DNA of 64,000 nucleotides, taken from NCBI GenBank assembly GCA_964393545.1, contig CAYMUB010000059.1, positions 4,571 to 68,570 on the forward strand, written 5' to 3'. Position 1 is the stretch's first letter; every line of letters starts with the position of its first letter. Source of the stretch: an uncultured Gammaproteobacteria bacterium. GTDB taxonomy: Bacteria; Patescibacteriota; Microgenomatia; Daviesbacterales; UBA10151. Below are positions 5,732 to 15,918 of the stretch, piece after piece. A program made the position numbers and the translations under genes. The notes under the pieces were generated by a model. It was not told the origin of the DNA and ran no database searches. It saw nothing but the letters and a program-made list of their open reading frames with translations.

Positions 5732-7183
5732 TTATAAATTCAATGCCCCACCTGCGGTCAAATTATCAATAACGTTATTCTTCCTAACCGTACCACCACT
5801 AATCTTTTCTGCTAAGGGTAAAGTAAAAGAAAACTTACTTCCTTTTCCTGCTTCTGACTCAACCCAAATCTTGCCACCTAATTTGTCTATTATAGATTTA
5901 GAGATATATAATCCTAAACCAGTACCTTTACTGGCTTGCTGCATCTGGTTGGAGACTCTGAAAAATTTATTAAAAAGATGTGACATCGCTTCTTTAGGGA
6001 TACCAACACCTGTATCAGAAACGCTAGTTATTATTTCATTGGGAGAAACTTCTACAGATACAGTTACATTTCCTCCAGCATTTGTATAGTTAATAGCATT
6101 TGCAATAAGATTAATAATAACTTCAGGAGTTCTGATTGGGTCTGCTAATATTTGAGGTAATTGCAAAGGAGGCTCAAAATTTAATACTACACTTTTTTGA
6201 ACAGCCTGGGATTTTAAATCCTCCACCACCTTAGTCACAATAGGTAGATAATCCAAAGCCTGAGGGAATACAGACATTTGCTCCCTTTCAATTTTGTTAA
6301 CATTTAATAGATTTCCGACCAATGTTAAGAGCTGCTTGGCTGATGTTAAGCTTCTTTGCAGAAGGTCTATTTCTGTGTTCTCTATTTTCCCTTTATTCTC
6401 ATCAATAAAGACAGACAAATATCCAATAATAGAAGTTAAAGGAGTCCTGAGTTCATGTGAGGCCATAGAGACAAAATCCAGTCTCATTTTTTCCAGTTCT
6501 TCTTCTTTGGCTATATCATGCATTATCAAGAGACAGGAAACATTGGTTTGAACAGTGCCATTAAGTTGTACAGTTGATAAATTAATCTTAGCTTGTTTGC
6601 CTTGCTTTCCGACTAGTTTAGCTAGTTTATTAAAAGAATTACTGCAATAAGTTTTTGGCAGAATTTCTTCTGAGTCAGTAAAAAGATGGACTAATTGGTC
6701 AACAGGATGACCTGTTAATTCACTTTGAGTAAAACCAGTAATTTCCTCAGCAGCTTTATTGGAAAGAATAATATTTTTATTAAAGTCTATAGCAATAATT
6801 CCATCCACAATTGATGATAAAACCTCACTTAATTTACTCCTGTCAGAAATGGCTATATCTTTTTCTGTTTGTAAATTATGAAATGTCTGAGAAATTTTAT
6901 CAGCCATCAAGTTAAAAGAATTACCAATCTTTTCAAATTCATCACCAGACCTAATATCTACTTTTTGACTAAAGTTTCCATTGCCTAAATTCTCAGAAGC
7001 TGTTATTAAATCCTGCAAAGGTTTTAAAAAGAGAAATATTAAAGTAGAAGAGGTAATCATTGTTAAAATTCCTACCCCAATAGAAATTAATAAATCATGA
7101 ATTAAAAATAGAGAAGTAAAAAGTGGGATAAATGTACTGATTAAAAGAACAACAATAGTTTTTACAAGAAGTGGACGCCCCAT
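5732..7183 (-). CDS. Sensor histidine kinase (TM-HAMP/PAS-HisKA-HATPase)
   Basis: N-terminal TM helices, H-box [12 protein letters not shown]-box motifs (GTGLGL) in C-terminal ATPase domain. Confidence 0.85.
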
Positions 7184-7232
7184 ATAGATTAAGAGTAACA
7201 GAGCTTAGGAATGGAATCAATCTCCCTTTCAG

Positions 7233-7306
7233 TAGCGCGTACGGGAGTTGAACCCGTGATCTTCACATTGAGAACGTGACGTCCTAGGCCACTAGACGAA
7301 CGCGCC
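7233..7306 (-). tRNA. tRNA-Glu (anticodon CUC)
   Basis: Reverse complement reads GGCGCGTTCGTCTAGTGGCCTAGGACGTCACGTTCTCAATGTGAAGATCACGGGTTCAACTCCCGTACGCGCTA: cloverleaf with D-loop typical of tRNA-Glu, anticodon loop TTCTCAA, T-arm GGTTCAACTCC; no encoded CCA. Confidence 0.8.
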
Positions 7307-7328
7307 GTGGTTGAAATTATACAGCAGA

Positions 7329-7357
7329 TTGACTTTATGAACAAATTAAAATAGAAT
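7329..7357 (+). promoter_or_regulatory. Putative sigma70-like promoter for greA (TTGACT-17 nt-TAGAAT)
   Basis: -35 TTGACT 7329-7334, 17-nt spacer, -10 TAGAAT 7352-7357, ~20 nt upstream of greA ATG. Confidence 0.4.
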
Positions 7358-7378
7358 TTGGCCAGCTTGCCCAACTGA

Positions 7379-7873
7379 ATGACAAAGACAAATATCGTGT
7401 CTGCAAAATTTGTAAAAAATACTACTTATCTGACTGCTAAAGGGCTTACTGAGGCAAAATCTGAGTTGGATTTTCTTAAGAAAACTAAAAGATTAGAAAT
7501 TGCCGAAAAAATCCACCAGGCCAGAGAGTATGGAGATTTAGCAGAAAATTCTGAATATGATAGTGCCATAGAAGAACAGTCTTTAACAGAAAATAGGATT
7601 TCTGAGCTGGAGAATATTTTAAAAAAAGTTAAAGTTATTGCAGATAATCACACCGAAGATTTTATCGTAATTGGTTCAACTGTCAAAATTGATATGGATG
7701 GGGAAATTGATCAATTTAAGATTGTTGGTAGAGTTGAGGCAGATCCATCTAAAAAAAGAATTTCCAATGAGTCTCCTTTGGGGATCTCACTATTGGGTGC
7801 CAAAAAAGGAGAGGTGGTTGAAGTTACAACCCCAATTGTCAGATACAAATGTAAAGTATTGGAGATATCATGA
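7379..7873 (+). CDS. greA: Transcription elongation factor GreA
   Basis: 164 aa; N-terminal coiled-coil with conserved EYDSAIEEQ... and C-terminal FKBP-like domain; classic GreA. Confidence 0.9.
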   Translation: MTKTNIVSAKFVKNTTYLTAKGLTEAKSELDFLKKTKRLEIAEKIHQAREYGDLAENSEYDSAIEEQSLTENRISELENILKKVKVIADNHTEDFIVIGSTVKIDMDGEIDQFKIVGRVEADPSKKRISNESPLGISLLGAKKGEVVEVTTPIVRYKCKVLEIS

Positions 7874-9153
7874 ACGATCTACCCTTAATTAAATTTAATC
7901 CCAAACTGCCTAAACTGTCAGCAAATGAAAAAGCTGTATTAAAACTGCTAGTTGAAGCAGGGGAATTAATTGTACCTGTATATGTAGCCCAAGGAGAAGA
8001 TGCGAAAAAGGTAAATAAAGGGGATATTGATAAAGCTGGTAAGAAATCTCCCAATCTAATCTCTCCTTACACCATTGTTGAAAAAGTAGAGGGAAAGCTT
8101 ATAGCCACTCCTTATCATATTAAATACAAAGAACTTCTAAACCCTGTTGCAGAAAAATTAGAAGAAGCAAGCAGGATAACTGAAAATAAGGACTTTAGTA
8201 AAGCTCTCAAAGTTCAAGCAAAGGCATTGTTAACTGGTTTTTACGATCAGGCAACTATAGCATGGCTCAAAGCAAAGCCGTGTATTTTAAATATTTCCAT
8301 AGGTCCGCTTCTCCATTATGATGATCGATTATACTTCTCTAAAGCTTCATACCACGCTTGGGTAGGAGTGATTGATAAAGAAGGAACTGACAAATTGAAT
8401 AATTACAAAAGCATTACCCTAAGTTCCAGGAGAACAGTGCTGGTTCCCAAAGAATGGATTAATCCAGCTAAAATTAAAACAAAAGTACTTGATGTTGTTT
8501 TATTTTCTGGTATTATGGCGAAAACAAGATTTGTAGGAGTAAATTTACCAATTGATATCGATATTATTGAAAAAGATGGAACTGAAGTTACAATTTTTAA
8601 TCAGGCTAATGATTTAAGACTGAAGGAACAAATCTTACCAAGTTTCAATAAGATATTTTCCAAAGGATTTAGACAAGGTTTTACTGAAGAAGATTTGAGA
8701 AAAGGTTATCTGTTAACAACGACTCTTCATGAATTAGCCCATAGTTACCTTAACTATAGATATTCATTTGATAGGCTACAAGATCTATTTACTTGTATTC
8801 AGGAACTTGCTGCAACCATATTAGGGCTTCGTATGGCTGGGTCTCTGCTTTTGAAAGACAGAATTACAAATAAACAATTAGAATCAATGCTTACCGCATA
8901 TATTTCAAGAACCTTCTTCCTTAGGCAAGAAAATAGAAACAATGAATTTATGAGTAAATATATTTTAGGGTGTAATATATTTATTAACTTCATGTTGGAA
9001 AATGGTGCCTTAAAACAACGCGGTAATTTAATTTTTACCAATTTTACTAAAGTATTTGTCTCATTACATGATTTATCTAATCTATTAGAAGACTTACTTT
9101 CAAGTGGGGCTAGAAAAGACGCCCAGTCTTTCGTCATACGATATACAAGATAA
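7870..9153 (+). CDS. Hypothetical protein with HExxH motif (HELAHSY), paralog A of tandem pair; putative metallopeptidase-like
   Basis: 427 aa; start overlaps greA stop (ATGA); homologous along full length to 10218..11534; HELAH motif; family not recognised. Confidence 0.7.
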   Translation: MNDLPLIKFNPKLPKLSANEKAVLKLLVEAGELIVPVYVAQGEDAKKVNKGDIDKAGKKSPNLISPYTIVEKVEGKLIATPYHIKYKELLNPVAEKLEEASRITENKDFSKALKVQAKALLTGFYDQATIAWLKAKPCILNISIGPLLHYDDRLYFSKASYHAWVGVIDKEGTDKLNNYKSITLSSRRTVLVPKEWINPAKIKTKVLDVVLFSGIMAKTRFVGVNLPIDIDIIEKDGTEVTIFNQANDLRLKEQILPSFNKIFSKGFRQGFTEEDLRKGYLLTTTLHELAHSYLNYRYSFDRLQDLFTCIQELAATILGLRMAGSLLLKDRITNKQLESMLTAYISRTFFLRQENRNNEFMSKYILGCNIFINFMLENGALKQRGNLIFTNFTKVFVSLHDLSNLLEDLLSSGARKDAQSFVIRYTR

Positions 9154-9209
9154 AGTTGCCACATTAAGTTGCATTAAAGCTCGATTGTGAGTATAATCTT
9201 TTAAATCTT

Positions 9210-10106
9210 ATGGCAACAACTAGAACTGCTGAACGTATGGGTGAATATATTGGACCGACATCCTCAAGAGTAACAGCTTTAACGTACCAAAGAGGTGAAT
9301 ATATCTATGAAGTGCAAAAGGCGACACGCTCTAATTTAGAGGGTTTAAGAACTAGAGCCATTGGATTTGAAGGACTATTAGAGTATGGGCCCTTCCGTAC
9401 TCCTGCTGAAGTCACTAGCAATATTCAGCCAGGTAGCGAAGTCATTTTTGCAAGCTATAGAGGACGATGGAGAAGAATGTTTGGTCTTCCTGCAAAAGAT
9501 GTTGGAGTAATGACTCTTGAAGTTAAAACAGCGACTATAGAAGGTAGACCAATTAAAGTCATATCTACAGGGGTAAGAGCAGTCGCGGAAAATTTTCAAA
9601 AGCACGGTATAGGCACAGACTTTGTTAGAGATGCAATTCTCAGGCATAGACCAGATGCTGTTACAGGTAGATCTAGGAATTGGAAGGTATATCGCTCGCT
9701 CGAAAAGATTGATCTTTTTAAAAATGGAAGTATTTCTCCAATTGATAAACCATTTCCTCCAGAAGCTCCAAGGGCATTAGAGCAAGTGCTTGCTAGAAGT
9801 AAAATCATAGAGATGGATTTACAAACAGGTCTTGTTAGAGACATTTATCCAAAAAAGAAGCCAAAGGATTTTACTCCTCGTAAAGGTCATGTGGCTGGTT
9901 GGAGAATTCACGATGCATTAATAGCAAAAGGTGTACCCCCAGGAGGAACCAATGGATTAAGATATTGGGTAGAGACTGATCAAGATGCGATTGATGCTGC
10001 GCTTCCTGAGTATCAAAGGCTTTTGGAACCAGAACCTCTAACGCCTAGCAAACGGCCACTTCTACAATCAATTGCAGAGAAGGTAGCAGACTTCCTTCAG
10101 GTTTGA
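9210..10106 (+). CDS. Hypothetical protein (partner X of paralog A)
   Basis: 298-aa ORF, Arg-rich, locally higher GC than neighbours; no family recognised. Confidence 0.55.
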   Translation: MATTRTAERMGEYIGPTSSRVTALTYQRGEYIYEVQKATRSNLEGLRTRAIGFEGLLEYGPFRTPAEVTSNIQPGSEVIFASYRGRWRRMFGLPAKDVGVMTLEVKTATIEGRPIKVISTGVRAVAENFQKHGIGTDFVRDAILRHRPDAVTGRSRNWKVYRSLEKIDLFKNGSISPIDKPFPPEAPRALEQVLARSKIIEMDLQTGLVRDIYPKKKPKDFTPRKGHVAGWRIHDALIAKGVPPGGTNGLRYWVETDQDAIDAALPEYQRLLEPEPLTPSKRPLLQSIAEKVADFLQV

Positions 10107-10113
10107 AAAAAGT

Positions 10114-10146
10114 CTTTTAAAAACCTTCAGTTTCAGATATACTTAA
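10114..10146. repeat. Copy 1 of ~33-bp conserved unit-terminal repeat CTTTTAAAAACCTTCAG(T/C)TTCAGATATACTT
   Basis: Near-identical to 12486..12520; lies at the end of each 2.34-kb duplicated unit. Confidence 0.7.
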
Positions 10147-10221
10147 CACAAAGAAGGAGAAGTGGTTGAGGTTACAACTCCAATTGTCAGATATAAATGT
10201 AAAGTATTGGAGATATCATGA
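10147..10221 (+). pseudogene. Relic of greA 3' end (encodes ...KEGEVVEVTTPIVRYKCKVLEIS*) carried by the tandem duplication
   Basis: ~90% nt identity to 7802..7873; frame intact but no start codon, upstream in-frame TAA at 10144; ends in the same ATGA overlap with paralog B start. Confidence 0.6.
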
Positions 10222-11534
10222 ACGATCTACCCTTAATTAAATTTAATCCCAAACTGCCTAAACTGTCAGCAAATGAAAAAGCTGTATTAAAACTGCTAGT
10301 TGAAGCAGGGGAATTAATTGTACCAATCTATCTTGAACAAGAAAATCAGATCAAAAAAATAGGTAACCTTTATCCTAAAGGAGTCAATAAAGAGAAAATT
10401 AGGATAGCTGCTAAGAAAAATCCTGAGGTTTTATCACCATATACAGTAGTTGAGGAAGTTAATGGGGAGCTGAGAGCAGTACCGTACCATATAAAGTACG
10501 CACAACTTTTAAAACCTGTTGCAGAAAAATTAAATCAGGCAAGTATGATAGCTGACAATAAAGAATTTAGTGAATTTTTAAAGTTGCAAGCAAAGGCTTT
10601 ACTGGATGGAACATATGAAGATGTTTTTGCTTCATGGCAGAAGATGAAACCTTATATTCTAGATATTTCTATTGGACCTGTAGAGCACTATGATGACAGA
10701 GTATTTTTCACCAAAGCAGCTTATCAAGCTTGGGTTGGGGTTGTTGATATGGAGGCAACAAGGAAACTCTATTTTGATAAAACTATAGTTTTAAGTGCTA
10801 GAAGAGATGTTTTAATACCGGGTGAACGGTTAGATAATTATGAGAAAGTCAAGGCAAAAGTGGATGATGTACTCTTGCTCTCAGGATTAATAGCCAGGAC
10901 AAAGTTTGTAGGGCTTAATTTACCTATGAACCTTAAGCTTGTTGAAAAGTATGGATCTGAGGTTACAATATTTAAACAAGTTAATGATTCAAGACTACAA
11001 GAGCAGATACTCCCGACTTTTAAAAAGATTTTTTCTTCGGAGTTTAGAAAAGGATATAGTTCAGAAGATTTAAGAAAAGGTAGTTTACGTTATGTTGCCT
11101 TTCATGAGTTAGCGCATAACTACTTATACTACAAAAGTTCTGCTGAGAGACTTCAGGATTTACTCCCTTCTATCTACGAACTTACTGCTACTCTTTTAGG
11201 TATGAGAATTGCTGGGTCCTTGCTCTTAAAAGATGTCCTTACCAATAAGGAGCTTGAATCAATGATTGTGGCATTCGTTTGCAGAAGCTTTGACCTTATA
11301 GAGAAAAATAAAACTAACAAATTTATGATTAATTATGCTTCCGGGGGGGCTATTTTTATTAACTTTATGCTTGAAAGTGGTGCTTTAAAACAAAAAGGAG
11401 GCATGACTATGCCTAATTTTATGAGGATTTTTGTATCATTACAGGAGTTATCATATATATTAGAACGTTTGTTATCCTCAGGTATCAAAAAAAACGTAGA
11501 GGTTTTCATAAAAAAGTACGGACATTTAAAATAA
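10218..11534 (+). CDS. Hypothetical protein with HExxH motif (HELAHNY), paralog B of tandem pair
   Basis: 438 aa; first ~36 aa identical to paralog A (100% nt identity over ~127 bp), remainder ~50% aa identity. Confidence 0.7.
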   Translation: MNDLPLIKFNPKLPKLSANEKAVLKLLVEAGELIVPIYLEQENQIKKIGNLYPKGVNKEKIRIAAKKNPEVLSPYTVVEEVNGELRAVPYHIKYAQLLKPVAEKLNQASMIADNKEFSEFLKLQAKALLDGTYEDVFASWQKMKPYILDISIGPVEHYDDRVFFTKAAYQAWVGVVDMEATRKLYFDKTIVLSARRDVLIPGERLDNYEKVKAKVDDVLLLSGLIARTKFVGLNLPMNLKLVEKYGSEVTIFKQVNDSRLQEQILPTFKKIFSSEFRKGYSSEDLRKGSLRYVAFHELAHNYLYYKSSAERLQDLLPSIYELTATLLGMRIAGSLLLKDVLTNKELESMIVAFVCRSFDLIEKNKTNKFMINYASGGAIFINFMLESGALKQKGGMTMPNFMRIFVSLQELSYILERLLSSGIKKNVEVFIKKYGHLK

Positions 11535-11598
11535 AACTTCATGCGACTTCTTCGGCATTTTGCAATATGTATGAACAAACGATATAATAACGCCCATT

Positions 11599-12468
11599 AT
11601 GACGATAGAACAAAAAGAGAGAAGGATGTTAACAAGAATGGTTAGTGGAGGAGCTGAACAGCGTGGACCTACAGCTATAGATCTTCCGAAAACAGGATAT
11701 ATTGTAGATATGTATCAAAAGGGATCTTATATTGCAGAAAAGGATGAATTAGCTAGAATAACAAAACGTCTAATTGTAAGCTCCGGTCTTTGGACTCAAG
11801 ATGTAGCAAACCAAATGGTTGAATCGGGTTTAGGTAGCAGTGATCCTGATAATACAAGCTGGCTAGGTTTTAGAAAATCAAATGCACCTCGGGGTGAATA
11901 TGATGGAGTTGCTTGGCAAGAAGAATTATATATTCCTACGGTTAGAGGATACGTGCGACTTCTTCATATGAAATTAAGAGCGTTCGTACCAGATGCTCAA
12001 GGACTTCACCTAGGAAGAACTGGTATGCAGCTTGCTCTCGGTGCACATCCTGAGGTTACTCATATTTCTCATCGAACAGGAAGTGCTGCAGCAGCACGCT
12101 CCTGGTTAGAGTCAGGAGTTTTCAGGGAAGGACGACGTTTTCCTTACGATCTTCCATTTGTTCAAGCTCCCCAGTTGCCCCAAATATTACTATGGCTTTA
12201 TGAGTTATATCATGTAAATGGAGAAAGGCCAAACCTTTCTACGGGAGTAAGTGTGGGTGATTATATCGAACAAAATAAGGCTTATATACCAGATCGAACG
12301 CACCAACCTACAATGGAAATTCTTAAATGGATGGAAGAAAAACCAACAGTATTAGTAGACGGAATGGAAGTAAAAAGGAAAGTATTAGTAGACGGAATGG
12401 AAAAAGATCCATTAGGAATGGATTTACAAAGAGGTGATTCGTTAACTGAGATTGGTGAACTCAGATAA
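11599..12468 (+). CDS. Hypothetical protein (partner Y of paralog B)
   Basis: 289-aa ORF, locally GC-rich (~50% over stretches) versus surroundings; no detectable similarity to partner X. Confidence 0.55.
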   Translation: MTIEQKERRMLTRMVSGGAEQRGPTAIDLPKTGYIVDMYQKGSYIAEKDELARITKRLIVSSGLWTQDVANQMVESGLGSSDPDNTSWLGFRKSNAPRGEYDGVAWQEELYIPTVRGYVRLLHMKLRAFVPDAQGLHLGRTGMQLALGAHPEVTHISHRTGSAAAARSWLESGVFREGRRFPYDLPFVQAPQLPQILLWLYELYHVNGERPNLSTGVSVGDYIEQNKAYIPDRTHQPTMEILKWMEEKPTVLVDGMEVKRKVLVDGMEKDPLGMDLQRGDSLTEIGELR

Positions 12469-12485
12469 AATTTGTTTAATTTCTT

Positions 12486-12520
12486 CTTTTAAAAACCTTC
12501 AGCTTCAGATATACTTTACC
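12486..12520. repeat. Copy 2 of ~33-bp unit-terminal repeat, immediately upstream of lysS
   Basis: CTTTTAAAAACCTTCAGCTTCAGATATACTTTACC vs copy at 10114. Confidence 0.7.
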
Positions 12521-12527
12521 CAATAGT

Positions 12528-14093
12528 ATGTATTGGGCAGATAGGGTTGCTAAAGAAATAATTGATTCAGGCAAATTTAAGCCATATTGGGTTGATGATA
12601 TGTTTACCCCTTCAGGTTATGCCCATATTGGTTCTTTAAGAGGGCCTTTGGTTCATGATTTAATCTATAAAGCTTTAGTTCATCAAAATCAGCAAACTAG
12701 GTTTACCTATGTAATGAATGATTTTGATCCTATAGATGGTTTACCAAAAGAACTGGAAAAAGATTTTTCCAAATACTTAGGTTTTCCCTTAAGAGTAGCT
12801 CCCTCACCTGAAAAAGGATTTGATAGTTTTGCCCAATTTTTTGCTGCTGATTTTAAAAATGTTTTAAATAGTTTAGGTATACAAGCAGAATTTTTATCTT
12901 CTTATGATATGTACAAAGAAGGTAAATTTGATGAAGCTATCAAAATTGCCCTGGACAATGTAGAAAAGATTCAGAATATTTATCAAAAAGTCAGTGGAAG
13001 CAAAAAGGCAGAGCAAGGCTGGTTGCCTTTACAAGTAGTTTGTGAAAATTGTGGCAAATTAGGTACCACCAGAGTTCATAACTTTGATGGGAAAGAAGTT
13101 GAATATACTTGTGAACTTATCATGGTTAAATGGGCTCAGGGTTGCGGATATACTGGTAGAATCTCTCCTTTTGGGGGAAAAGGAAAATTGCCCTGGAAAG
13201 TAGACTGGCCTGCTCATTGGTCAGTAATAGGTGTAACAATAGAAGGGGCTGGTAAAGACCACTCATCTGCTGGTGGTTCAAGAGATATTGCCAAAGAGTT
13301 ATGTAAGAATGTCTTTAAGATCAAGGAGCCATATAATTTGCCCTATGAATTTTTCTTAATCGGTGGTAAAAAAATGGCTTCATCTAAAGGTTTAGGTTTA
13401 AAAGCTAGAGATGCAAAACAACTTTTACCTTCAGAACTGGTCAGGTTTCTATTTGTCAGGACAGATTACAGGCAAGCTGTTGAGTTTGATCCTTTGGGTA
13501 CAATGGCTATTCCAGATTTGTTTGATGAATATGATAGATGTTACTTAGCATTTGCTAAGAAAACGGATCAAGACCTGGCAAGAGCTTTTGAAATGGCACA
13601 AGTTGGAGAATTGCCGGAAGGTGATATTAAAATTTTACCTAGGTTTAGGGATGTAGTTAATTTTGTACAAACCCCTAATGTTGATGTCTGGAAAAAGTTT
13701 GAAGAGATAAAAGGTTCAAAGTTAACTGAAGAAGAAAAAAAGATTTTGGGAGAAAGGGTAGAATACGCCAAAGTCTGGATTGAAAAATATGCCCCGGATG
13801 AATTCAGATTACAAATGTTACCTGAGTTGCCCAATTTAGCAGATACCTTAACGCAAGAACAAAAAAGTTACCTTTCAAGAGTAGTTGAAATTTTAGATTC
13901 AGCAGAGACAGCAGAAAAACTACAACTGGATTTATATAACCTTTCCAAAGAACTCAAAATAGATGCCAAAATTGCTTTTTCTGCAATATATATTTCCATG
14001 ATAGGAAAACAATTTGGACCAAAGGCTGCCTGGTTTTTATTATCTTATCCAAAGGAAAAAGTAATTGAAAGACTAAAAGAGGCAGCAAAATGA
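12528..14093 (+). CDS. lysK: Lysyl-tRNA synthetase, class I (archaeal/spirochaete type)
   Basis: N-terminus MYWADRVAKEII...TPSGYAHIGSLRG matches class I LysRS HIGH-region signature; KMSKS-like GGKKMASSKG; 521 aa. Confidence 0.8.
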   Translation: MYWADRVAKEIIDSGKFKPYWVDDMFTPSGYAHIGSLRGPLVHDLIYKALVHQNQQTRFTYVMNDFDPIDGLPKELEKDFSKYLGFPLRVAPSPEKGFDSFAQFFAADFKNVLNSLGIQAEFLSSYDMYKEGKFDEAIKIALDNVEKIQNIYQKVSGSKKAEQGWLPLQVVCENCGKLGTTRVHNFDGKEVEYTCELIMVKWAQGCGYTGRISPFGGKGKLPWKVDWPAHWSVIGVTIEGAGKDHSSAGGSRDIAKELCKNVFKIKEPYNLPYEFFLIGGKKMASSKGLGLKARDAKQLLPSELVRFLFVRTDYRQAVEFDPLGTMAIPDLFDEYDRCYLAFAKKTDQDLARAFEMAQVGELPEGDIKILPRFRDVVNFVQTPNVDVWKKFEEIKGSKLTEEEKKILGERVEYAKVWIEKYAPDEFRLQMLPELPNLADTLTQEQKSYLSRVVEILDSAETAEKLQLDLYNLSKELKIDAKIAFSAIYISMIGKQFGPKAAWFLLSYPKEKVIERLKEAAK

Positions 14094-14683
14094 ATATAAG
14101 TGATCTTAAAAAAATCTTAAAAGTGTTTTTAACTTTGCAATGGGCTAAAGAATTACCAAGACAGGGTTTTATTGCTTTAGGTTTTAAAAGAAATGAAGCA
14201 GATTCAGTAGCAGCCCACTCTTTTACAACGGCTCTTTTAGGGTATTTCTTGGCCAAACAATTACAAAAAGAAGGTACAAAAATTGACTGTGATAAAGTAT
14301 TGAAAATGGGTCTAGTACATGATATTGGGGAAACAATTGTGGGAGATGTGGGAACTTTTGTCAAAGGTATGGCTGGGGGAGTATTTAAAAATATTGAGGA
14401 AGAAGGGGTAAAAGCCTTAGTTGAGGATTTGGATTCCAAAGATGAGATATTAAAGCTTGTTTCGGAATATAACGGGAGAAATACTTTGGAGGCCAGAGTG
14501 GTTAAAACTGCAGATAATTTAGATGCGCTAGCTCAAGCTAAAGGTGTACCTGGAGCCCAAGATGCGTTAAAATATTTTAAGCAGATGACTCATATTACAA
14601 AATTTGACTGGCATAAAACTGCTATAGATTTAATACTAAGTAATAAGGTGGAGCCGGAAAGAGGCTGGCAGGAAAAAGAATAG
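14090..14683 (+). CDS. HD-domain phosphohydrolase (YfbR-like 5'-nucleotidase family)
   Basis: H...HD motif (HSF...VHDIGE), ~197 aa. Confidence 0.65.
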   Translation: MNISDLKKILKVFLTLQWAKELPRQGFIALGFKRNEADSVAAHSFTTALLGYFLAKQLQKEGTKIDCDKVLKMGLVHDIGETIVGDVGTFVKGMAGGVFKNIEEEGVKALVEDLDSKDEILKLVSEYNGRNTLEARVVKTADNLDALAQAKGVPGAQDALKYFKQMTHITKFDWHKTAIDLILSNKVEPERGWQEKE

Positions 14684-14685
14684 TT

Positions 14686-15918
14686 ATGTTAGACATAAAT
14701 TTTATCAAAGAAAACTTAGCAAAAGTTAAAAAAGATATTGTAGACAGGAAGACAGACGTTGATCTGGATAAACTGTTATCTTTAGATGAACAAAGAAAAG
14801 AATTAATTCAACAAGTTGATGCCATCAGGGCCAGAAGAAATGAAGCAGCCAAAGCAAAAGATATTGAATCTGGTAAGAAAATAAAGACCGAGTTGGGTGG
14901 ACTTGAGAAACAATTAGCAGACATAGAAAAAGAGTGGAATATGTTAATGTTTCAAGTGCCAAATATTCTGCTGGATGAAGTTCCCAGGGGTGATGTAACT
15001 CAAAATAAAATTCTCAGAAAAGAAGGGGAAATACCCAAGTTTTCCTTTATTCCTAAAGACCATATAACACTTGGAAAGCTTTTAAATATTATAGATTTTG
15101 ACAGAGGAGTAAAGGTGGGAGGATTTAGAGGTTATTATTTAAAAAATGAAGGTGCCAGATTGCACTGGGCTATCTTGCAATTTGCCTTTGATCATTTAAT
15201 ACAAAAAGGTTTTAATCCTGTTGTCCCACCGGTAATAAATAAAAGATTTGCTTTAGTTGGAGGAGGACAATTTCCTTGGGGTGAGGAAGATACATACAAG
15301 GTTTCAGAAGAAGATTTTTTAGTTGGGACAGCTGAGATTCCTTTGATGGCCATGCATTCTGATGAGACTTTTGAGTTAAAAGATTTACCAAAAAAATATG
15401 TAGGAATATCTTCTTGTTTTAGAACAGAAATTGGTTCTTATGGCAAAGATACTAAAGGTTTATATAGAGTTCATGAATTTTATAAAGTAGAGCAGGTAGT
15501 CTTGTGTGAGGCGGATGAGCAAGAGTCTTTAGGTTTTTTTGAAGAATTGCAAGATAATTCAGAGGATATTTTGCAGGAATTAGGTCTACCCTATCAGGTA
15601 GTTATTCTATCCAGTCAAGATATAGGTAAAAAATCAGCTTTAACATATGATATAGAAACATATATGGCAGCCAGGAATGGCTATGGTGAAACTCACTCCA
15701 ATTCAATAGTCTTAGACTTTCAAACCAGAAGACTTAAAATTAAATACAAGGATCAAGATGGAAAAGTTAAATTTTGTCACGCCTTAAATAATACGGCTAT
15801 TGCCTCACCCAGAATTTTAATTCCTATTTTGGAAAACTTCCAGACTGAGGATGGATCTGTAAAAATTCCAGAAGTTTTGCAAAAGTACACCGGCTTTTCA
15901 GAGATTAACCCTAAATAG
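14686..15918 (+). CDS. serS: Seryl-tRNA synthetase
   Basis: N-terminal coiled-coil tRNA-binding arm, class II motifs; 410 aa. Confidence 0.88.
   Translation: MLDINFIKENLAKVKKDIVDRKTDVDLDKLLSLDEQRKELIQQVDAIRARRNEAAKAKDIESGKKIKTELGGLEKQLADIEKEWNMLMFQVPNILLDEVPRGDVTQNKILRKEGEIPKFSFIPKDHITLGKLLNIIDFDRGVKVGGFRGYYLKNEGARLHWAILQFAFDHLIQKGFNPVVPPVINKRFALVGGGQFPWGEEDTYKVSEEDFLVGTAEIPLMAMHSDETFELKDLPKKYVGISSCFRTEIGSYGKDTKGLYRVHEFYKVEQVVLCEADEQESLGFFEELQDNSEDILQELGLPYQVVILSSQDIGKKSALTYDIETYMAARNGYGETHSNSIVLDFQTRRLKIKYKDQDGKVKFCHALNNTAIASPRILIPILENFQTEDGSVKIPEVLQKYTGFSEINPK

Follow-up and report, generated by a model that had tools for sequence, protein, structure and literature searches.

The interval between greA and lysS in contig CAYMUB010000059.1, from a Daviesbacteria-type genome (Patescibacteria), carries two tandem copies of a two-gene module, in which A and B encode putative zinc peptidases of the dipeptidyl peptidase III (DPP III) type, and X and Y encode partner proteins that are homologs of each other, with a predicted GCN5-related N-acetyltransferase (GNAT) fold. 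The stretch was analyzed as a window of 64 kb, whose numbering is used for all coordinates except those given with an L-number, and the related loci or contigs that were compared with it are denoted by L-numbers (L009, L024, L067, and so on).

According to the open reading frame (ORF) listing, the order on the plus strand is greA, A, X, B, Y, class I lysS, HD hydrolase, and serS. The gene content given in the initial annotation of this DNA, namely HExxH proteins of 427 and 438 amino acids followed by partners of about 290 amino acids between greA and lysS, is confirmed, where the partners are 298 (X) and 289 (Y) amino acids long. The features of the locus are as follows.

greA, 7379..7873, plus strand: 164 amino acids; Pfam GreA_GreB_N, E = 4e-22, and GreA_GreB, E = 6e-20
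Unit 1, 7801..10147, plus strand: 2348 bp; greA 3′ end, A, X, and 39-bp element; direct repeats at diagonal offsets 2348, 2372, and 2375
Unit 2, 10148-12523, plus strand: approximately 2375 bp
Identical tract, 7847..7976 (equal to 10195-10324), plus strand: 130 nt; last 27 nt of greA and codons 1-36 of A/B
A, 7870..9153, plus strand: 427 amino acids; putative short DPP III-like (M49) zinc peptidase with HELAH and the second-motif Glu
X, 9210..10106, plus strand: 298 amino acids; predicted GNAT-fold partner of the X-subgroup, from family profile and alignment
39-bp element, copy 1, 10113..10151, plus strand: 92% identical to copy 2; promoter-like match at 10116-10143
greA 3′ remnant, 10149..10221, plus strand: 73 bp; last 23 codons without a start codon; 68/73 nt match 7801-7873
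B, 10218..11534, plus strand: 438 amino acids; second putative DPP III-like peptidase, HELAH
Y, 11599..12468, plus strand: 289 amino acids; predicted GNAT-fold partner of the Y-subgroup
33-bp tandem duplication within Y, 12331..12396, plus strand: 85% identity; MEEKPTVLVDG / MEVKRKVLVDG
39-bp element, copy 2, native promoter-like upstream element of lysS, 12485..12523, plus strand: ends 4 nt ahead of the lysS ATG
lysS class I, 12528..14093, plus strand: 521 amino acids; PF01921, E = 1.5e-92; right-hand anchor of the locus

The tandem duplication

The self-comparison by repeat finding and a diagonal scan shows a second diagonal, as the dot-plot check proposed in the initial annotation would have it, and the claimed tandem duplication of an HExxH protein with its partner is borne out at offsets of 2348, 2372, and 2375. 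Both ends of the unit are repeated: the 5′ repeat (7801-8018 and 10149-10366) covers 218 nt at 89% identity, and the 3′ repeat (10113-10151 and 12485-12523) covers 39 nt at 92% identity. The gene bodies of A and B align at approximately 65% nucleotide identity at offsets of 2372-2375, and the X/Y interval lies at the background level (about 25%), which agrees with the earlier description of units whose ends are alike and whose interior is very divergent. The measures given with that description need correction. The two units are not of the same length (2348 and approximately 2375 bp), the segment derived from greA covers 73 bp (10149-10221) instead of about 45 bp, and the terminal repeat covers 39 bp instead of about 33 bp.

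At the junction (10147/10148), the lysS-upstream element runs straight into the last 23 codons of greA. The stop codon of greA overlaps the start codon of A (ATGA). The remnant in unit 2 derives from the last 73 nt of greA, in which the GGAG ribosome-binding site of the peptidase gene is located. This remnant gives B its own GGAG site and ATGA overlap.

It was considered whether the metagenome assembly had falsely joined two strain alleles of one hypervariable locus in tandem, as the source is a metagenome assembly and independent contigs end within the identical tract of 130 nt. The Logan contig L073, which comes from a separate run, equals 7947-10224 of the window with 0 mismatches and extends through X, the 39-bp element, and the greA remnant into the start of B; the Logan contig L071 equals 10295-15210 with no mismatch. 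Both contigs break inside the perfectly repeated tract, as is usual for assemblers at repeats. The junction of the 39-bp element with the greA remnant is unique, and it is reproduced with 0 mismatches in the independent assembly (A–X–junction–B start), by which an artefact is rejected; analogous arrays, each with its own junction, also exist in three other metagenomes. A false join is extremely improbable, and the A–X/B–Y tandem duplication is genuine.

Peptidases A and B

A and B are 60% identical in amino acids, where approximately 50% had been estimated. The profile of 37 family sequences matched two structures in the Protein Data Bank (PDB), namely 6eom_A, the DPP III of Caldithrix abyssi (E = 2.5e-34, residues 51-429 aligned to 137-524), and 5zum_A, the DPP III of Corallococcus (E = 3.6e-25). 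H296, E297, H300, and E321 are invariant across the 37 sequences, and the zinc-ligand positions of A and B align to H379, H383, and E442 of the Caldithrix enzyme (CaDPP III), which are its zinc ligands, the last one lying in the EECKAD motif (PMC5805324). E321 aligns with the second Glu of EECKAD in 6eom, whereas the first Glu and the C-K-A-D context are not conserved. The short bacterial enzymes 6EOM and 5ZUM define an M49 subgroup with the pentapeptide zinc motif HExxH (PMC5805324; PMC9820243). For the Pfam model PF03571, which has a cut-off of 21 bits, B scores above it at 24.0 bits and A below it at 19.9 bits.

Judged from these alignments, A and B are putative short DPP III-type zinc peptidases (M49, HExxH subgroup) with all zinc ligands intact, and they are apparently active. 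Relatives at 60-79% identity number at least 407, of which the named ones belong to Candidatus Daviesbacteria or Patescibacteria; the exact-sequence look-up of protein A returned no record.

Partner proteins X and Y

In the pairwise comparison, X and Y gave a BLASTP E-value of 0.009 at 22% global identity, and close relatives among 5.8 billion proteins numbered 2 for X and 6 for Y. The comparison of tiny alignments of 3 and 7 sequences using hhalign gave a probability of 0.6%. The earlier statement that X and Y have no detectable similarity holds at this pairwise level only, since profile methods show clear homology. Homology became detectable once intermediates had been harvested from the related loci described below. 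At E ≤ 1e-5, BLAST links all 32 distinct partner proteins into a single component; hhalign applied to non-overlapping X-group and Y-group alignments gave a probability of 99.3% with E = 2.3e-20 over 207 columns; and hidden Markov models (HMMs) that were built without X or without Y, together with its neighbours, recovered X at 8e-14 and Y at 3.8e-12, with a nominal database of one million sequences. X and Y are therefore homologs and members of one family. The check by sensitive profile methods, for which the initial annotation had called, hence shows homologs rather than unrelated proteins, and X and Y are homologous to each other, but not to a housekeeping family. Only 133 members of the partner family were retrieved when 1.84 billion cluster representatives (50% clusters) were searched exhaustively with the profile. 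One distant member was checked, and it has the same greA–peptidase–partner neighbourhood.

X and Y matched no family in Pfam and NCBIfam, and these searches gave no significant match to a curated GNAT sequence model. Of the structure predictions that had been suggested, those of the single partner proteins were made with AlphaFold, and the AlphaFold2 model of Y, based on an alignment of 89 sequences, reached a predicted local distance difference test score (pLDDT) of 94.3 and a predicted template modelling score (pTM) of 0.89. In a Foldseek comparison of this model with the PDB, 72 matches were found at E ≤ 1e-3, and all 50 among the matches listed have the GNAT fold. The nearest solved structures appear to be N-terminal acetyltransferases, namely Ard1/Naa10 (4r3k and 4kvm), Naa30, and RimI (5isv). 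The profile of the partner family compared with the PDB gave a best E-value of 0.0028, and the weak sequence matches are almost all GNATs; Acetyltransf_1 was reached by only 8/89 relatives, with a best E-value of 1.1e-5. Motif A of GNATs, Q/R-x-x-G-x-G/A, binds the pyrophosphate of CoA. X has Q-K-H-G-I-G at this motif and most family members have R/Q/E-x-x-G-x-G, where the last Gly is nearly invariant. Conservation in the family is highest around beta4 and motif A and lowest in the N-terminal 100 residues; the N-terminal part of GNATs contributes to acceptor binding. The X/Y family is thus predicted from the model to have the GNAT fold, and the earlier proposal that the partner had been replaced by an unrelated gene is not sustained, as X and Y both belong to one family of this fold. 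The 33-bp duplication in Y (12331-12396) lies in an insertion that is absent from all other family members, and the model predicts short beta-strands there.

A different base composition of X and Y had also been reported, which is misleading: their GC contents are alike (41.5% for X and 40.2% for Y), and both are richer than A and B at codon positions 1 and 2 only. The GC content of the partner gene exceeds that of the peptidase gene in 32/32 related loci. At codon positions 1 and 2 it is 0.463 in the partners and 0.371 in the peptidase genes, whereas at the third position (GC3) it is equal, 0.255 and 0.260, respectively; the partners contain more Arg, Gly, and Pro and less Lys. Because the excess is confined to positions 1 and 2 while GC3 matches that of the neighbours, the higher GC content is an effect of the amino-acid composition, and a foreign origin of X and Y on the basis of GC content was rejected. 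A diversity-generating retroelement, for which a template repeat matching a variable region and a nearby reverse transcriptase would be expected, is not supported: within 7000-13500, X and Y have no segment that is repeated, although the rest of the window was not searched for a reverse transcriptase. The divergence of X and Y covers the whole protein and lies between genomes.

Related loci

Approximately 60 related loci were gathered by exact look-ups and one metagenome scan, and the order greA–peptidase–partner–lysS–HD–serS recurs in about 60 loci. In nearly all of them, a gene of 250-340 amino acids lies between the peptidase gene and lysS. The identity to the window is 70-88% for greA, 68-84% for class I lysS, 80-96% for the HD hydrolase, and 75-87% for serS, and it is 53-79% for the peptidase (median pairwise identity 62%). 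For the partner, the median is 23.5%, and the identity between distinct loci never exceeds 59%. Synonymous sites are saturated, with a baseline codon identity of approximately 0.5, and even the closest partner pairs are less than 60% identical. The closest genome in terms of flanks is L024 (HD hydrolase 96%, serS 87%, and greA 88%); its peptidase is 62% identical, and its partner is missed by tblastn. The reading of the downstream gene as a variable slot is supported by this hypervariability across genomes, where a median of 23.5% stands against 70-96% in the flanks, and the survey of related genomes at the greA–lysS junction, which had been recommended, yielded additional arrays and very diverse partners.

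The content of the slot is not constant. In L036 (380-2433) and L041 (4477-7426), the peptidase gene is followed directly by lysS without a GNAT partner, and the distant loci L043, L045, and L047 likewise have none; because of these five loci, the GNAT partner is dispensable in some lineages. The first unit of L024 (1767-4334) consists of an M49-like protein that is very divergent (32% identity to B) and, downstream of it, a HisG-like ORF (PF01634, E = 4e-11) instead of a GNAT partner. L013 contains a third, divergent M49-like gene at 9126-10289.

Tandem arrays were also found in L012, L013, and L024, and the structures of their junctions differ from that of the window. The junction of the window contains zero lysS codons and a greA tail of 23 codons. 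In L024 (4390-4500), approximately 15 codons of class II lysS are fused to the greA tail; in L012 (1600-1835), approximately 29 codons of class II lysS are fused to about 38 greA codons; and in L013 (6680-6860), 13 codons of class I lysS are fused in frame to about 40 greA codons. Because the junctions differ in the lysS class and in the lengths of the lysS and greA parts, the four arrays are products of independent duplication events. The units within arrays are divergent as well; in L013, the identity is 61% between the peptidases and 28% between the partners. The junctions in L013, L012, and L024 encode chimeric mini-ORFs, in which N-terminal lysS codons are joined in frame to C-terminal greA codons and which end in an ATGA overlap with the next peptidase gene; these mini-ORFs may preserve translational coupling.

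Module lineages and recombination

The similarity between the two units changes abruptly along the 5′ repeat. The segment 7801-7846 is 89% identical to unit 2, with 5 differences, of which 4 are synonymous in the greA frame. It is followed by the tract of 130 nt (7847-7976 and 10195-10324), which has 0 mismatches and a sharp right-hand edge at 7977. At peptidase codon 36/37, the identity of A and B drops abruptly to approximately 60%, and their synonymous-codon identity is 0.97 within the tract and 0.48 in the rest of the gene. The synonymous sites of codons 1-36 of A and B are nearest to those of L024, L010, and L029 (0.6-0.76, against the saturated baseline of approximately 0.5), which are the closest genomes in terms of flanks, so the first 36 codons follow the phylogeny of the flanks. 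The body of B, in contrast, is nearest to the peptidases of L067 and L068 (77-79%). The different nearest relatives of codons 1-36 and of the B body indicate a recombination breakpoint near codon 36, with a recent conversion (or crossover) between the A and B copies. A terminator-like G+C-rich hairpin with a T-run (CTGCTTCAACTAGCAG) lies on the minus strand at 7945-7960 and 10293-10308, within both copies of the identical tract, as a consensus match only.

In the neighbour-joining tree of the peptidases, from which the converted first 40 residues were left out, the peptidases that are paired with X-type partners all fall into a single clade, A among them, and B groups with L067, L068, and L009. 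A–X and B–Y appear accordingly as two old module lineages in this tree, in which A and B are not the closest relatives of each other, and other genomes carry one or the other lineage as a single unit at this site. The lineages of peptidase and partner do not coincide throughout. B is 78.5% identical to the L067 peptidase, whereas Y is 22% identical to the L067 partner, and in the loci with Y-like partners at 55%, the peptidase is only 65-67% identical to B. The divergences of peptidase and partner correlate weakly (Mantel r = 0.22, p = 0.001). The initial annotation had proposed an old tandem duplication that diverged in place; the duplication stands, and the divergence in place is too simple in view of the mosaic structure of B, the non-sister relationship of A and B, and the independent arrays.

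The lysS upstream element and the lysS slot

In many genomes, the 39-bp element is present with 88-93% conservation in the interval from the partner stop codon to lysS, and both copies in the window contain the same promoter-like match, TTTAAA-16-TATACT. It is the normal upstream element of lysS, of which the duplicated copy now precedes unit 2. The Rfam scan of the whole window gave a single match, the tRNA-Glu at 7232-7306, which means that the 39-bp element corresponds to no known RNA motif. This tRNA-Glu (anticodon CTC) lies on the minus strand just upstream of greA. In the region 12485-12527, the −10-like hexamer TATACT is only about 12 nt ahead of the lysS ATG and no obvious Shine-Dalgarno sequence is seen, which suggests that the lysS leader is very short or absent.

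The gene in the lysS slot belongs to class I in 17 and to class II in 23 of 40 related loci; class I is present in the window and class II in its closest relative, L024 (6957-8426). Genes of both classes retain the 39-bp element upstream. This is a non-orthologous displacement polymorphism in one genomic slot, and the locus offers a clean natural example of the displacement between class I and class II lysyl-tRNA synthetases.

Origin and function of the module

The overall account, in which a DPP III and GNAT module was duplicated, its alleles were exchanged, and its products act as a pair in one pathway, seems fairly probable. Its structural and evolutionary part is held with high confidence, while a specific biochemical coupling of the peptidase with the GNAT protein is doubtful. 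An illegitimate recombination between the region upstream of lysS and the last 23 codons of greA would have fused the two and duplicated the stretch that comprises the 3′ end of greA, the peptidase gene, the GNAT gene, and the lysS promoter element. Alternatively, a circularised fragment spanning the greA 3′ end to the lysS upstream region might have been integrated. In either case, unit 2 would have gained its own lysS promoter-like copy together with the ribosome-binding site in the greA remnant. Homologous recombination in the conserved flanks may swap the unit body, which extends from codon 37 of the peptidase gene to the stop codon of the GNAT gene, among lineages, and a recent gene conversion would have homogenised the 130-nt tract at the 5′ ends of the two peptidase genes. 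The predicted peptidase would remove N-terminal dipeptides from oligopeptides, and the GNAT protein would, as part of one pathway with the peptidase, use an acyl-CoA to modify a free amino group on substrates of the peptide or amino-acid type. The acceptor-binding half of the GNAT protein may diversify very fast, and keeping two different alleles could widen the range of substrates or specificities, which would account for the recurrent arrays of divergent units.

Several points weigh against this account. A and B seem to lack a region that matches roughly the first 130 residues of the Caldithrix enzyme of about 550 amino acids, which belong to the lower domain. They are about 120 residues shorter at the N-terminus, with only about 50 residues ahead of the aligned region compared with 136 in 6eom, and their activity could differ. 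Y has Q-G-L-H-L-G at motif A, with His in place of the first Gly. The AlphaFold model of X, based on 10 sequences, had a pLDDT of 41 and was discarded, so the fold of X relies on profile homology to the family of Y. We infer the physical or pathway coupling of A with X and of B with Y only from their strict adjacency. Because the divergences of peptidase and partner are correlated, as the Mantel coefficient given above shows, part of the apparent shuffling could be heterogeneity of rates. Finally, unit 2 may have been imported, or it may be an old duplication within the genome that was followed by allele replacement.

A simpler history would be a single ancient duplication in place, followed by ordinary divergence, in which concerted evolution kept the ends alike and the single-unit relatives lost one copy. 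The junction of the lysS upstream region with the greA remnant is what a tandem duplication within a genome yields, the identical tract shows gene conversion between the copies, and A–X and B–Y resemble two old co-inherited classes, as the Mantel correlation suggests. However, L024, in spite of its close HD hydrolase and serS, has a different junction and non-orthologous units, the nearest relatives of B (78-79%) are in genomes with more distant flanks (HD hydrolase 84%, serS 75%), and the first 36 codons and the body of B differ in their nearest relatives. Four arrays with four junctions require repeated events in any case, and this history is judged unlikely. The initial annotation had instead compared the module to variable-cargo cassettes of the toxin/immunity or effector/substrate kind, in which the downstream gene is replaced by an unrelated one. 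Such a cassette would suit the noise-level pairwise similarity of X and Y and the hypervariability of the slot between genomes, and GNAT toxins that acetylate aminoacyl-tRNA are known (PMC9177977, PMC7595197), while the locus adjoins lysS and serS. It conflicts with the homology of X and Y and the single family of all 32 partners, with an upstream gene that encodes an apparently active DPP III-type peptidase of 430 amino acids with intact predicted catalytic residues and not a DUF1778/ribbon-helix-helix (RHH) antitoxin, with partners of 250-340 amino acids compared with about 170 for GNAT toxins, and with a fixed chromosomal site that has no mobility genes and a GC3 equal to that of host genes. 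PADLOC gave no matches for A, X, B, and Y, and the ORF listing contains no small, antitoxin-like ORF between the module genes. The toxin/immunity analogy thus has no support, and a variable-cargo cassette is very improbable.

The detoxification of peptide-delivered (Trojan-horse) antimetabolites was also considered. The DPP III-type peptidase would process imported peptides and the GNAT protein would acetylate the released warhead, as in the acetylating analogues tabtoxin resistance TTR, phosphinothricin PAT/BAR, and microcin C MccE; an arms race would drive the hypervariability of the GNAT protein, and the class I/II polymorphism of lysS would be part of the same adaptive island. The extreme diversification of the partners against conserved flanks and the alternation of the lysS slot between class I and class II fit this proposal, and the two classes of lysyl-tRNA synthetase differ in their sensitivity to lysine analogues. 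The proposal is attractive, but its support is entirely circumstantial, no linked transporter or toxin gene is present, and the lysS class has no evident association with the partner subgroup; detoxification of this kind is judged highly unlikely. In a broader form, which we regard as quite unlikely, the greA–lysS interval of Daviesbacteria would be an adaptive island under diversifying selection, where the peptidase and a private GNAT protein serve as a specificity pair for peptide-delivered amino-group compounds, alleles are traded and stacked to broaden protection, and the alternation of the lysS class belongs to the same response. The pair might, for example, neutralize peptide-borne antimetabolites or inhibitors of aminoacyl-tRNA synthetases that originate from hosts or competitors.

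The duplicated module with allele exchange remains the preferred account. Patescibacteria genomes are tiny and consist mostly of conserved housekeeping genes and unknowns. Amid the housekeeping genes greA, lysS, and serS, one family falls to approximately 23% identity while its neighbours keep 70-96%, the partner slot appears to be exchanged between lineages, and the module has been duplicated independently at least four times. Such a pattern usually marks genes that face a changing external partner, for example, a host, a competitor, or a toxin. The unknown partner gains a predicted fold (GNAT) and a fixed enzymatic companion of the putative DPP III type, and the family alignment can be used for annotation. 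What had been two unrelated hypothetical genes becomes a testable enzyme pair.

Comparison with known systems

A tandem duplication as such is ordinary, and DPP III and GNAT are known kinds of protein. The new elements are a locus-bound, hyper-divergent GNAT family without a curated model, the obligatory pairing of that family with a short DPP III, and the recurrent stacking of divergent alleles. The literature on DPP III–acetyltransferase pairing in Patescibacteria and on hypervariable Daviesbacteria genes was searched, and nothing relevant was found.

Compared with the DPP III enzymes of Caldithrix abyssi (6EOM, HEISH) and Corallococcus (5ZUM, HELMH), A and B likewise have HExxH and not HExxGH, keep the putative zinc-binding Glu of the second motif, and seem to be cytosolic, as no signal peptide is visible. 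They differ in size, with approximately 430 amino acids against 540-570, and in the second motif, which is (Y/Q)-E-L-x-A-T instead of E-E-C-K-A-D. A and B always occur with a GNAT gene in the greA–lysS interval, and no such setting has been described for the characterised DPP III enzymes.

The X/Y family shares the pyrophosphate-binding loop of motif A with the GNAT superfamily, and its weak sequence matches are almost all to GNATs. The partners are distinguished from the superfamily by their length of 250-340 amino acids, with about 100 extra residues, by conserved motifs of their own (P-x-D, T-G-V-S, and G-D near the C-terminus), by a family-wide identity of approximately 14-23%, and by their confinement to one chromosomal slot of Daviesbacteria-like genomes. 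The type II GNAT toxin–antitoxin modules (TacAT, AtaRT, ItaRT, and KacAT) are likewise two-gene units with a downstream GNAT gene and fast divergence, and their link to translation has a counterpart in the proximity of the greA–lysS module to aminoacyl-tRNA synthetase genes. They consist, however, of a DUF1778/RHH antitoxin and a toxin of about 160-180 amino acids, whereas the module described here consists of a putative M49 peptidase of 427 or 438 amino acids and a GNAT-fold protein of 289 or 298 amino acids, which is nearly twice as long, and it occupies a constant chromosomal position without being mobile. Among the top matches listed for the Y model, none is a toxin-type structure.

The arrangement also resembles hypervariable chromosomal loci whose content is exchanged through recombination in conserved flanks, such as the pneumococcal capsule locus (dexB–aliA) and the O-antigen loci, where the identity drops sharply between conserved anchor genes, as it does at greA–lysS, and where alleles incongruent with the phylogeny of the flanks and mosaic breakpoints occur as well. 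Those loci encode pathways for surface structures, whereas the variable content at greA–lysS consists of two putative cytosolic enzymes. Unlike at the capsule and O-antigen loci, the alleles at greA–lysS are all homologous, and they are found in arrays of two or three per genome.

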